Shown piece after piece: positions 59,224 through 61,969 of a stretch of 64,000 nucleotides of DNA (position 1 is the stretch's first letter; each line of letters starts with the position of its first letter). The notes beneath the pieces were generated by a model that saw only the letters and a program-made list of their open reading frames with translations, did not search any database and had not been told where the DNA came from. The position numbers and the translations under genes were made by a program. The stretch comes from an uncultured Candidatus Saccharibacteria bacterium (GTDB lineage Bacteria; Patescibacteriota; UBA1384; JACPKC01). Location of the stretch: the NCBI GenBank assembly GCA_964423885.1, contig CAYRGD010000001.1, positions 24,156 to 88,155 on the forward strand. Direction: 5' to 3'.

Positions 59224-60213
59224 GTGCGAAAAGTTCTCATCGTGTTATTGCTAGCATTGGCGGGAGCTTTTCCCGCGCATGCCCAAATCTGGGGTGGGGG
59301 ATCTCTTTCGATAGGGATCCGGGAAAACAAAGACCATGCCGGTCTCTCGAACTTTGTCTCGGAGGTCTATTACTCCGAAGACGGTTCGAAACCGATCGGC
59401 GGTACTCCGTGCTTCGCGCAGGAGAGTAACGACCAACGGCCGGCGCTACCGAACCATGTACCCGGCCAGCAGGGTAAGGTCTGGCTGCTCATCAAGAGCA
59501 GTATTCTCAATGCCGGCGAGATCAAAGACATCGAATTGGCTTTTAAAGGCAACAACCAGGGCGGCCACATCGTGGTTCCTGGCGAGTTGTCTCGCAGCCA
59601 AGTCGATTTCTGGATCGACATGTCGCAGTTCCAGTGCGGGTCATACCCAATGGAACTCAAAGTGACCCATATGGGCGGAGAAGTGACATATCATGTCCTT
59701 TTCTTCCTGTTCCGGTCGCAAAAAGAGGTCGCCGACCAGACGGTCATGTACCTGACGGTCTACGACCCCGAGCGTACTTACACGCCGGCGGAAATCCAGC
59801 TCGCGCAGTACTTGCGCGGCTACGAGCCGCCGAACGGTGCGAAGGCGTACAAACTTAACACCGGCAAAGACATGCCGGTGTTGGTTCAGGCGCCGACACA
59901 ACCTACCGCTTCGACCGGCACTCCCGGCTCGTACGGCGGCCCGGCTCCGATGCAAACCGGAACGGTGACCATCGACGTGTTCGGTGACCCGATGAGGGTT
60001 ACGAGAGCATCTGGCAAATTCGACCTTAAAAACGAACAAGGCCAGATTATTGTGGGCCAGATTGGTGAGCATATGACGTTCACCGTTCCGCCCGGCCAGT
60101 ACCGAGTGATCGGGTACGGCAACTGGACGATCCGCGGCCGTGAGGCCACGGTGACTGTCGCGGCTGGCCAAAACCAGACCGTGAATATCTGCAGGAAGGG
60201 AGGCGTGAAGTAA
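59224..60213 (+). CDS. Secreted hypothetical protein (signal peptide; lower-GC gene)
   Basis: GTG start 10 nt after AAGGAGG. MRKVLIVLLLALAGAFPAHA signal peptide. No recognised domain. Visibly lower GC than the window average. Confidence 0.6.
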   Translation: MRKVLIVLLLALAGAFPAHAQIWGGGSLSIGIRENKDHAGLSNFVSEVYYSEDGSKPIGGTPCFAQESNDQRPALPNHVPGQQGKVWLLIKSSILNAGEIKDIELAFKGNNQGGHIVVPGELSRSQVDFWIDMSQFQCGSYPMELKVTHMGGEVTYHVLFFLFRSQKEVADQTVMYLTVYDPERTYTPAEIQLAQYLRGYEPPNGAKAYKLNTGKDMPVLVQAPTQPTASTGTPGSYGGPAPMQTGTVTIDVFGDPMRVTRASGKFDLKNEQGQIIVGQIGEHMTFTVPPGQYRVIGYGNWTIRGREATVTVAAGQNQTVNICRKGGVK

Positions 60214-61074
60214 GTGAGACGGCTACTTCATATTCTGTGCGTTTTTCTGCTCGCTACCGCTGCGTTCGCGCAGCAAGCGGGCACGACCGTCTGCCACCTT
60301 GGCGTGGCACCTCTTTTGGGGCCATGCCATAACCGGGAGCGGCTGATGCAGCTCTCGGTCGAACGTCGCGACCTTCTGTATGCGGCTGTCATCCAGGCAG
60401 GGCATGGCGAGGGTGTTGCCAACCAGGTAGTGCAAATGCTCTGCCTCGGACAGGCGACGGAAGTACGGCTTCGTAATGGCACTGCGCTCGCAACCATGGC
60501 TTGGTTCGGCGTCGATAGTTCAGGTTCTACCGGAGTCCACACGTTGTGGAATCCCCGGTTGGAGCTCGGAAACTCGGTGCCGTGTTGGCAGGTGAAGGTG
60601 ATGGTCGAATCGAAGACCATCATTTTTGTCCTACCGAAGGCGTGCGGAAATCTGGCCCGGCTTGGCGTCTGTCAGCGGGTTACGGTTCGCCCCGAGCTGC
60701 CTCAGCCGCCCCACTACGTTCCGCCTCCGGTCATCACCCTGACCTGGGCATCCGGGGCGAACGAGCGACTGCCCGATAAAGGCAGTCACCAGAACATGGG
60801 CTCGACCGTTTCTTCAGGGGAGCTCCGGTTCTTCCCGAAACCCGGGGACACGAATATTTGTGTCCAAGGTTCTTCGGCAAGTGCTATCTCCGGCTCCAAG
60901 AGTGATGCGACGACGGGGCCGATCAACATCAACAATCAAAATAACAACATCAACCAGGCACAGAACGTTGTGCCGGTGAATGTTGTCGTCAACACCGGTT
61001 CCGGGAATGCATCCGGGACCGCGACCGCCACTGGCAATCAAGATGCCAGCGGTATGCAGAACAACGGGCCGTAA
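60214..61074 (+). CDS. Secreted protein with one C-terminal Asn/Gln-rich chaplin-like repeat
   Basis: GTG start directly after the upstream stop. Signal peptide MRRLLHILCVFLLATAAFA. C-terminal NINNQNNNINQAQNVVPVNVVVNTGSGNASG repeat, shared with the next gene. Confidence 0.6.
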   Translation: MRRLLHILCVFLLATAAFAQQAGTTVCHLGVAPLLGPCHNRERLMQLSVERRDLLYAAVIQAGHGEGVANQVVQMLCLGQATEVRLRNGTALATMAWFGVDSSGSTGVHTLWNPRLELGNSVPCWQVKVMVESKTIIFVLPKACGNLARLGVCQRVTVRPELPQPPHYVPPPVITLTWASGANERLPDKGSHQNMGSTVSSGELRFFPKPGDTNICVQGSSASAISGSKSDATTGPININNQNNNINQAQNVVPVNVVVNTGSGNASGTATATGNQDASGMQNNGP

Positions 61075-61105
61075 CAACGGCCCAAGTCAAAACAAGAGGG
61101 GAACC

Positions 61106-61136
61106 CCGGCAGCTACGGCTGCCGGATTCCTTCCCT
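61106..61136 (+). terminator. Weak intrinsic terminator / attenuator hairpin
   Basis: CCGGCAGC-tacg-GCTGCCGG followed by ATTCCTTCCCT (a weak U tract). Confidence 0.3.
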
Positions 61137-61240
61137 GGCTCAACTCGGTTGAGCAGGGGAATAGAATCAACCACGGAAGGGCGGGCCGGCGTCGATGCGG
61201 CCTGGAATGTGCAACACAAAAGGAATGAGGTGATTTCATT

Positions 61241-61969
61241 ATGCACAGTCTGAAATTGATCGGTCTCGCGTCCGTTGCGTTCTTGATGACGACAGCTGGT
61301 TCCTCAAGCGCGCTGGCGGCCTGCAATCCGTCGTGCGGTACGGGCACTACCAGTTCGTCGAACTCGAGCTCTTCGAGCTCCAGCTCATCGTCCAGCAACA
61401 CCGGCAGCGTGACCGTCAACAACCAAAACGCGAACACGAACCAGGCACAAAACGTCCAGGCGACCAACGTCGTCGTGAACACCGGTTCGGGCAGCGCGGC
61501 CGGTTCTTCGAGCGCAGCGGGCGACCAGGGTGCCACAACCACCCAGAACAACGCCACGCAGGGCGCGACGAACACCAATACGTCGAACGGTAGCGCTTCG
61601 GTGAACAACCAGAACAGCAATACCAACCAGGCCCAGAACGTCGACTGCACCAACGTGGTCGTCAACACGGGCAAGGGCGACGCGGCCGGGGCGTGCGCGG
61701 CGGCTGGCAGCCAGCAGTCGACCACGACCCAGAACAACGGCGGTACCACGACCACCAACCAGACCCAAACGGTCACGAAGGAGTCGACGGTGATCGCCAA
61801 GGCCGAGGCTACGGCCACGTCGAAGCCGAAGGACAAGGGTCCGCTCCCCAAGGAGCTCCCGAAGACCGGCGCCGACGCGATCGCGCTCACGAGCGTCCTG
61901 ACGCTCGGCGGTGCGGCAGCCGGTGCGCTTCGCAAGAAGCTCATCGCCAAGACCGCGCTGGTCGCCTAA
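61241..61969 (+). CDS. LPXTG-anchored surface protein with two Asn/Gln-rich chaplin-like repeats and a poly-Ser tract
   Basis: GAGGTGA ribosome-binding site. Signal peptide MHSLKLIGLASVAFLMTTAGSSSALA, poly-Ser (S12). Two repeats: VNNQNANTNQAQNVQATNVVVNTGSGSAAG and VNNQNSNTNQAQNVDCTNVVVNTGKGDAAG. C-terminal LPKTG + hydrophobic stretch + RKK sortase signal. Confidence 0.7.
   Translation: MHSLKLIGLASVAFLMTTAGSSSALAACNPSCGTGTTSSSNSSSSSSSSSSSNTGSVTVNNQNANTNQAQNVQATNVVVNTGSGSAAGSSSAAGDQGATTTQNNATQGATNTNTSNGSASVNNQNSNTNQAQNVDCTNVVVNTGKGDAAGACAAAGSQQSTTTQNNGGTTTTNQTQTVTKESTVIAKAEATATSKPKDKGPLPKELPKTGADAIALTSVLTLGGAAAGALRKKLIAKTALVA

Follow-up and report, generated by a model that had tools for sequence, protein, structure and literature searches.

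A three-gene cassette, g1-g2-g3, lies on the + strand of a 64-kb stretch of DNA from an uncultured Candidatus Saccharibacteria bacterium (contig CAYRGD010000001.1, positions 24,156 to 88,155). This whole stretch of 64,000 nucleotides (nt) is called the window below, and unlabeled coordinates refer to it. Judged from its sequence, the cassette is best explained as a lineage-specific cell-surface assembly of one Saccharibacteria/Patescibacteria clade. All three genes encode predicted secreted proteins, and two of them share a repeat of 49 amino acids (aa): g2 carries a single copy at its C-terminus, behind a globular domain, while g3 carries two copies and ends in a sortase signal. We tentatively propose, with a confidence somewhat short of even, that g3 would be a sortase-anchored scaffold on which g2 docks by in-register beta stacking of matched repeats. 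Upstream of g1 lies a structured leader RNA that is well supported as a candidate for a new, previously undescribed RNA motif tied to surface-protein genes. Saccharibacteria, like other Patescibacteria, live attached to bacterial hosts; to our knowledge, the surface proteins of Patescibacteria are mostly without known function and their regulatory RNAs are almost unexplored. The protein-coding features of the cassette are the following.

59224..60213, + strand: g1, open reading frame (ORF) for a secreted protein of 329 aa with a signal peptide and beta-rich domains
60214..61074, + strand: g2, secreted protein of 286 aa with a signal peptide, alpha/beta domain, Pro-rich linker and type-A repeat
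60304-60678, + strand: alpha/beta domain of g2 (aa 31-155), from AlphaFold2
g2 aa 160-173, + strand: Pro-rich linker of g2
60922..61068, + strand: type-A repeat (QNV-VPV-NVVVNTG...), g2 aa 237-285, at the g2 C-terminus
61241..61969, + strand: g3, sortase-signal protein of 242 aa with a signal peptide, poly-Ser tract, type-B repeat, type-C repeat, Thr/Gln-rich stalk, LPKTG, hydrophobic stretch and RKK
g3 aa 38-52, + strand: poly-Ser tract of g3
61409..61555, + strand: type-B repeat (QNV-QAT-NVVVNTG...), without Cys, g3 aa 57-105
61595..61741, + strand: type-C repeat (QNV-DCT-NVVVNTG-KGDAAGAC...), with two conserved Cys, g3 aa 119-167
61856-61870, + strand: LPKTG of g3 (aa 206-210), followed by a hydrophobic segment (aa 211-230, 20 aa) and RKK (aa 231-233)

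Direct reading of the sequence finds a hydrophobic signal peptide ending in AxA at the N-terminus of g1, g2 and g3, in line with the original prediction, which had described a lower-GC operon of three secreted proteins at this place. The composition part of that description stands for the leader, g1 and g2 (56-59% GC) and fails for g3, whose GC of 64% lies within the range of the flanks (63-65%). The description of g3 as a protein with two repeats, a poly-Ser tract and an LPKTG signal is borne out, and each element now has its aa positions.

In every locus with enough flanking DNA, the cassette sits in the same gene order, (dprA-topA-recR-)cysS-[~0.3-0.7 kb]-g1-g2-g3-prfB-ybaB-pth. The syntenic set comprises the window, loci L003, L004, L009-L012 and L028-L030, and the contig carrying protein P0007 (~10 distinct genomes), and the cassette-bearing genomes belong to Saccharibacteria/Patescibacteria with GC contents from ~40 to 65%. 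Among 185,579 species genomes scanned, full-length relatives turned up only in metagenome-assembled genomes labeled Candidatus Saccharibacteria, Patescibacteria group or Candidatus Berkelbacteria. Homologues of g2 form ten clusters among 5.8 billion proteins, and identical copies of the window proteins came from sequencing run SRR12712864 only. No further cassette was found in a scan of metagenome contigs, which returned only Acidobacteriota-type relatives of the g2 N-terminal domain, and g2 had no match in the viral contigs scanned. Pfam and NCBIfam gave no family for g1-g3, barring a sub-threshold Gram_pos_anchor, and PADLOC and PHROGs searches gave no match. By these searches, the protein family is very rare, unnamed and new, with no homology to known families.

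Sequence identities of g1-g3 drop in parallel with those of cysS, prfB and pth across the loci, which argues that the cassette is inherited vertically, and it does not look like an island. Horizontal acquisition, suggested by the GC dip, was ruled out since protein divergence tracks that of the flanking genes. The GC content of g1/g2 stays at ~47-59% although the flanks span 38-65% GC across genomes; g1/g2 lie below their flanks in the window (59224-61074) and above them in L003 (1251-3203) and L012 (4943-6909). This steadiness possibly reflects a constraint on codons or composition, or slow amelioration.

Six-frame translation of the window locates the repeat motif at three sites only, one in g2 and two in g3. 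Across loci, 18 copies align without gaps over 49 columns, nine of them invariant and a further eight nearly so, with the consensus N.NQNNN..TSQAQNV...NVVVNTG.G.A.G...A.G.Q.....Q.N. The copies fall into three types. Type A (QNV-VPV-N) in all cases forms the last 50 aa of g2, type B (QNV-xAT-N) is the first repeat of g3, and type C (QNV-DCT-N...G-x-C), with a pair of Cys 16 residues apart, makes up the later g3 repeats, in one or two copies (g3 of L028 has three repeats). Repeats are kept position by position across genomes of 40-65% GC, while the spacers beside them vary freely in length and sequence. A comparison of the window with L004 gave the g3 repeats a ratio of nonsynonymous to synonymous substitution (dN/dS) of 0.074, as against 0.22 in the remainder of mature g3, with residue indexing approximate by a few positions. 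The same repeat peptides are encoded by different codons, and a 13-mer shared with L003 has nine synonymous differences. These patterns indicate that the repeats are under strong purifying selection. The original prediction had allowed that frameshifts or stops might reveal repeats not under selection; the dN/dS of 0.074 speaks against this, and the frameshifts in L003 were set aside as assembly errors, that locus lying on a 3x-coverage contig in which cysS and pth are also broken.

Searches with the repeat recovered little beyond the cassette. An exhaustive phmmer search with the two-repeat region against 1.84 billion representatives, in which single repeats would score too low to show, returned P0001, the L003 orthologue, as the only true relative; another match, P0012, was rejected as a spurious, unrelated tandem-repeat ORF. 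The 49-column repeat profile found nothing at E<=0.01 among 5.8 billion sequences, a set for which this profile is too short. A word-indexed homology search with full g3 gave P0001 only, among the matches listed, with candidates dominated by low-complexity words, and a profile search of g3 against the PDB gave no match.

The repeats had been called beta-prone and rich in Asn and Gln, and both terms hold. Asn and Gln make up 33-38% of their residues and hydrophobic residues 10-20%, with a grand average of hydropathy (GRAVY) of -0.59 to -0.73. AlphaFold2 models of the g3 two-repeat region have, at low confidence, one beta-hairpin per repeat (E19-26/E32-39 and E81-88/E94-101), in which a first strand ..TNVVVN leads through a turn TGxGx to a second strand AAGxxxA, and the type-C Cys pair flanks the predicted turn.

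At the C-terminal end of g3, LPKTG, ~20 hydrophobic residues and RKK, together with the N-terminal signal peptide, reproduce the architecture of LPXTG sortase substrates (PF00746), and ELPKTG is kept in six further loci (L003, L004, L011, L012, L028 and L029). The alternative that g3 is a lipoprotein (ALAAC) was ruled out by the absence of this Cys from L012 and L003.

The g2 N-terminal domain differs from the repeat in how firmly it is modeled. In an AlphaFold2 prediction from 10 sequences, aa 31-155 (~125 aa) form three helices and a six-stranded sheet with a predicted local distance difference test (pLDDT) score of 83-96; the domain is thus confidently predicted to be folded, though it has no assigned fold. 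With its LPKxCGNL signature, the domain recurs in Acidobacteriota (Vicinamibacterales), in loci L013-L027 (e.g., L014 5731-6999 and L024 1034-2467). There, an EARKAE coiled coil or else a poly-Pro stretch, sometimes with an Ig-like domain, links it to a C-terminal domain ending in YQFWxGxRYIFR, and the repeat is lacking. Pfam has no family for either the N-terminal or the C-terminal domain of these relatives, and the latter resembles an outer-membrane barrel. The presence of a barrel-like domain in place of the repeat points to the C-terminal module of g2 as an exchangeable anchor and to its N-terminal domain as the displayed cargo. Between g2 and g3, L028 encodes an extra secreted protein of 97 aa (2392-2685), comprising a small head rich in Cys and a single divergent repeat (SQAQNQSIAPVIRINTGD); the repeat is therefore attached to different cargoes. 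A further observation concerns the annotation of g2. P0002, an NCBI-derived protein with 100% identity to g2, starts at an internal Met and has only 242 aa; it is missing the signal peptide as well as the VCHLGVAPLLGPC segment conserved in every homologue. The start of the deposited gene has probably been placed too far downstream.

The relation between the repeats of g2 and those of g3 bears on how the proteins might work together. Within one genome, different repeats resemble each other in their N-terminal half (0.69) more than repeats of one type do across genomes (0.54), while the C-terminal part shows the reverse (0.55 within a genome and 0.65 for the same type between genomes). Moreover, in each of the four independent lineages (the window clade, L012, L003 and L028), the N-terminal half of the g2 repeat finds its nearest match among the g3 repeats of the same genome, with own-genome similarities of 0.85, 0.92, 1.00 and 0.92, and values of at most 0.85 against other lineages. 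Synonymous differences argue against recent gene conversion. Matching of this kind is what in-register stacking of g2 on g3 would demand.

From such sequence patterns and the predicted structures we infer sortase anchoring, docking of repeat on repeat, a role for g1 and a regulatory role for the RNA, in the following scheme. Transcription would start at a conserved promoter and probably run through the 141-nt leader RNA and a terminator-like hairpin, with attenuation or masking of the ribosome-binding site as the likely means of regulation. Once exported, g3 would be attached to the wall by sortase through ELPKTG and display two to three copies of the 49-aa repeat on a low-complexity stalk. 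Exported g2, with its globular domain, would be retained at the surface by its single C-terminal repeat, stacked in register on those of g3. The resulting stack would be short and hetero-oligomeric, cross-beta or beta-solenoid-like, with ladders of Asn and Gln, and the repeat would serve as an anchoring and docking module, not as a surfactant. g1 would be translationally coupled to g2 and is probably its partner.

Several points weigh against this scheme. Model confidence is low where docking would take place, with a pLDDT below 50 for the g2 linker and repeat and a mean of 49 for the g3 repeats, the latter from a shallow alignment. The within-genome matching test covers four independent lineages only, and old gene conversion or a shared external ligand could give the same matching. 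With regard to anchoring, the Gram_pos_anchor model (PF00746) scores g3 below its cut-off of 20, with 13.7 bits (E 0.065) for the window copy and 17 bits for that of L012, which sets g3 apart from recognized LPXTG substrates. A motif search of the 64-kb window for a sortase (an ORF with TLxTC), the enzyme to which the original prediction had pointed, found none. Finally, g1 has neither a repeat nor an evident anchor, and its role is a guess.

The stop codon of g1 abuts or overlaps the start of g2. Orthologues of g1 occupy the same position in L004, L009, L010, L012, L028 and L030, and no relative was found in the Acidobacteriota loci. The protein has no family in Pfam, NCBIfam, PADLOC or PHROGs, and a profile search against the PDB gave weak matches to Ig-like domains only (E 0.24-1).

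Cohesin-dockerin systems, in which dockerin-bearing cargo is held on wall-anchored multi-module scaffoldins, offer a close analogy in layout to the proposed docking of g2 on g3. Both pair an anchored scaffold with cargo that ends in a single small docking module, set off by a Pro-rich linker. Cohesin and dockerin are two complementary folds, whereas the scaffold and docking modules of the cassette are homologous copies of one repeat; there is no sequence relation, and binding in the cassette is a proposal.

A different outcome of repeat stacking would be a functional amyloid fiber, in which g3 acts as nucleator and g2, or subunits of the 97-aa type, polymerize into an extended cross-beta coat or adhesive matrix. 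We regard this as unlikely but possible. The combination of an anchored multi-repeat protein with a secreted single-repeat one recalls curli CsgB/CsgA and the long and short chaplins, the richness in Asn and Gln, the NVVVN core and the predicted strand-turn-strand units would suit a fiber, and the within-genome matching is what in-register stacking requires. The ~125-aa globular domain and long linker of g2, however, fit a tethered cargo better than a fiber subunit, the repeats have no homology to known amyloid families, and a short subunit occurs in one of ~10 genomes only. Resemblance to curli is indeed one of principle: CsgB and CsgA likewise have Asn/Gln/Gly-rich strand-turn-strand repeats with a G-x-G-N turn, and in both systems a cell-associated template is proposed to direct a secreted partner by in-register stacking. 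The curli unit is ~22 aa long as against 49 aa, and the cassette proteins have one to three repeats each and a sortase signal for anchoring. Between cysS and prfB, only g1-g3 are present, with no family matches and thus no csgEFG-type genes.

Another possibility is that the repeat binds a polymer or glycan of the wall non-covalently, in the cell's own envelope or on the host cell, with g2 and g3 acting independently. Such a role would explain why the repeat stands at the g2 C-terminus, where the Acidobacteriota relatives carry their envelope anchor, and it suits the strict conservation of the motif; the way in which all repeats of a genome co-vary by lineage would also be expected if they had a common ligand that differs from lineage to lineage. 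Known wall-binding modules, though, usually occur in many proteins per genome, and glycan binders typically have aromatic and charged residues. The repeat is confined to g2/g3 in the 64-kb window, has one true relative in 1.84 billion representatives, and contains few charged residues and none that are aromatic; moreover, g3 already has a predicted covalent anchor. On balance, wall binding seems quite doubtful.

It is less probable again that the repeats are a disordered, low-complexity stalk or spacer with no specific function in assembly. The low AlphaFold2 confidence and the low-complexity surroundings (poly-Ser, Thr/Gln-rich) would be expected of a spacer, as would the lack of matches in HMMER profile searches with the repeat alone. 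A mere spacer would hardly keep its sequence position by position over 40-65% GC while neighboring spacers vary, nor show a dN/dS of 0.074 beside 0.22 for the rest of mature g3, nor conserve a Cys pair.

The original prediction had likened the repeat core to that of Streptomyces chaplin domains, and as a statement of homology this has to be withdrawn. A profile search with PF03777, one of the checks put forward with it, gave no match at E<=10 for g1-g3 or for the 18 isolated repeats, and PF07012 (curlin repeat, S-x5-Q-x-G-x-G-N-x-A-x3-Q) likewise gave no match for either set. With the same Pfam library, ChpH matched PF03777 at 3.3e-28 and CsgA matched PF07012 at 2.3e-28, so both models are present and sensitive. 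The ChpH control was the mature sequence, and its mass of 5120.8 Da and GRAVY of 0.600 agree exactly with the published figures (PMC3079736). In hhalign, the repeat profile reached probabilities of 0.4% against ChpH and 0.07% against CsgA, and BLASTP in the chaplin comparison gave E=53; membership in the curlin family was ruled out by the missing PF07012 match and the hhalign result. Hydropathy is opposite as well: ChpH has a GRAVY of +0.60 and 35% hydrophobic residues, and chaplins range from +0.16 to +0.60 (PMC3079736). The lack of a profile match and the opposite hydropathy indicate that the VPVNV..NT string common to both arose by chance or convergence.

What remains of the comparison with chaplins is a matter of layout. 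In both systems, a sortase-signal protein with at least two repeats (the long ChpA-C) accompanies secreted single-repeat proteins (the short ChpD-H), the repeats are ~40-50 aa long and beta-prone, with two conserved Cys (in the cassette, in type C only), and the assemblies are of a Gram-positive surface type. The pairing of a double-repeat anchored with a single-repeat secreted protein that had been noted in the window is kept in ~10 genomes, and the claim that it mirrors long and short chaplins survives in this logic of anchored multi-repeat and unanchored single-repeat forms. The likeness is weaker for the partner. While g3 fits the long form, g2 is not short, having 286 aa and a globular domain, and is unlike a ~5-kDa short chaplin; only L028 has a 97-aa single-repeat protein. 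Nor is the Cys pair of (almost) every chaplin domain found in types A and B, being confined to type C. Furthermore, chaplins are hydrophobic and have an LAxTG signal, in contrast to the hydrophilic repeats and LPKTG of the cassette, and a role in surfactant action or aerial growth is not conceivable for an ultrasmall epibiont. That the repeats are divergent chaplin domains, e.g., acquired from actinobacterial hosts, is barely conceivable despite the shared VPVNV..NT, the two Cys of type C and the similar anchored and secreted arrangement (PMC3079736), given the profile, alignment and hydropathy results, the lack of the Cys pair in types A/B and the vertical inheritance of the cassette in a housekeeping neighborhood, and chaplin homology is effectively refuted at the sequence level.

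The repeat module apparently arose independently of chaplins, curli and Fap, with the same logic of an anchored multi-repeat and a secreted single-repeat protein. If in-register docking or polymerization holds true, the cassette would add a fourth, non-homologous way in which bacteria template beta assembly, the first in the candidate phyla radiation, and its repeat would be a compact surface display tag of ~49 aa. A more far-reaching version, which we consider speculative and improbable as a whole, is a self-templating attachment system of Asn/Gln ladders, evolved by Patescibacteria themselves, in which cargo would be held non-covalently on the sortase-anchored scaffold by cross-beta stacking of repeats with matching sequences (a minimal functional amyloid, or molecular Velcro) and switched by a new class of leader RNA (a riboswitch or one that masks the Shine-Dalgarno sequence), perhaps with a part in the epibiotic attachment characteristic of these organisms.

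The second main element of the cassette is the RNA ahead of g1. The features of the non-coding sequence are as follows.

58913..58941, + strand: sigma-70-like promoter TTGACA-N17-TAGACT, 10/12 consensus positions
58981..59124, + strand: structured RNA core, 141 model positions, within the whole leader 58942-59223
59159..59196, + strand: terminator-like hairpin, a 14-bp stem with UUUUCUAAUU behind it, placed after the RNA core and ahead of the g1 ribosome-binding site
61099..61160, + strand: two conserved hairpins in the g2-g3 spacer, from the alignment of five loci
61985..62014, + strand: intrinsic terminator 3' of g3, with a stem of 13 bp and then U5 (-21.1 kcal/mol, z -3.7)

The 318-nt interval between cysS and g1 folds far better than shuffled sequences (z -5.7). 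In the five loci aligned, RNAalifold folds the core into a long basal helix with a branched arm and a pair of hairpins that have GCUUGC caps, with 58 pairs and 94% of cells paired. Compensatory changes occur at 21 of the 58 pairs, as against 2-5 in slid controls, a number that none of 500 shuffles reaches, and G-U pairs fix the RNA strand as +. Nucleotide identity of the core is 72-80% across loci of 40-65% GC, while the flanking proteins of the same loci are only ~40-57% identical. A covariance model finds exactly one copy per locus, each time upstream of g1, at 130-157 bits; the copy at the start of L028 is truncated. None of the 4227 families of Rfam 15 matched at E<=10 in window 58850-59300, or at E<=5 in L003, L004 and L010, and the viral contigs scanned with the leader RNA gave no match. 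Signal recognition particle (SRP) RNA, 6S RNA, RNase P RNA, transfer-messenger RNA (tmRNA) and T-box were rejected as identities of the leader, with no Rfam match, no tmRNA by ARAGORN and the characteristic motifs absent on inspection.

Within the core, the invariant UGCCCCUCCUUCCC (CCUCCUU) is complementary to the AAGGAGG ribosome-binding site of g1 and is partly paired with GGAGAG in the model. In this it resembles the C-rich regulatory small RNAs (sRNAs) that pair with Shine-Dalgarno sequences, and with these and the riboswitch and attenuator leaders it also shares a conserved core, a promoter of its own and a terminator-like hairpin behind; it differs from known cis-acting leader RNAs in matching none of the Rfam families. 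The structured leader and the terminator-like hairpin make attenuation or masking of the Shine-Dalgarno sequence likely, with the leader as a cis-regulator. It is possible, alternatively, that the leader is an independent sRNA with read-through into g1. The more distant loci L003, L010 and L012 have two further small elements. Just 5' of the RNA core stands a hairpin whose loop is GGAGGGA, with a U tract behind it, and immediately before the g1 Shine-Dalgarno sequence comes a GCGGUCAAA(A)CCGC hairpin; neither element occurs in the window or L004.

A consensus promoter had been placed ahead of the operon, and the site is there, at 10 of 12 consensus positions, but that account omitted the structured leader. 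Promoter-like sites in the region number two, against 0.7 expected, and TTGACn-N17-TAGACT is kept in four loci (the window, L004, L003 and L012). The distance from promoter to g1 is 283 nt, with the structured RNA and the terminator-like hairpin in between. This hairpin has a fold energy of -25.1 kcal/mol (z -4.5), and counterparts with U tracts lie between the RNA core and g1 in L004, L010 and L012. Just 3' of the -10 box, an 8-bp palindrome, GTTCGAAC, lies within a longer imperfect inverted repeat in the window (58942-58975) and in L004 (~3725-3760), and is followed by a second -10-like box (TATAGT in the window, TAGACT in L004). The palindrome is absent from more distant loci and may be an operator site.

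At the other end of the cassette, the clean terminator that had been reported is real. The two hairpins of the g2-g3 spacer (61075-61240 in the window) have a fold energy of -40.4 kcal/mol (z -4.0), and in L012 (6907-7125) and L003 (3201-3383) the first of them is terminator-like, with a U tract behind it. On this basis, g3 may be partly uncoupled from g1-g2, by separate transcription or by stabilization.

Other envelope features are encoded elsewhere in the window. On the - strand, a 633-aa ORF (stop to stop, 29210-31108) has three PKD domains and a C-terminus of ...RLAQTG, a hydrophobic stretch and RR, and is likely a second sortase substrate with a signal of the LAxTG type, unlike the LPKTG of g3. 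A type IV pilus cluster (38801-43433), with two ATPases, one PilB-like with an MshEN domain and one PilT-like, and a likely PilC, fits the Saccharibacteria lifestyle, and a class A penicillin-binding protein is also encoded. Together, the type IV pilus ATPases, this penicillin-binding protein and the LAQTG-type PKD protein fit an envelope of the Gram-positive type.

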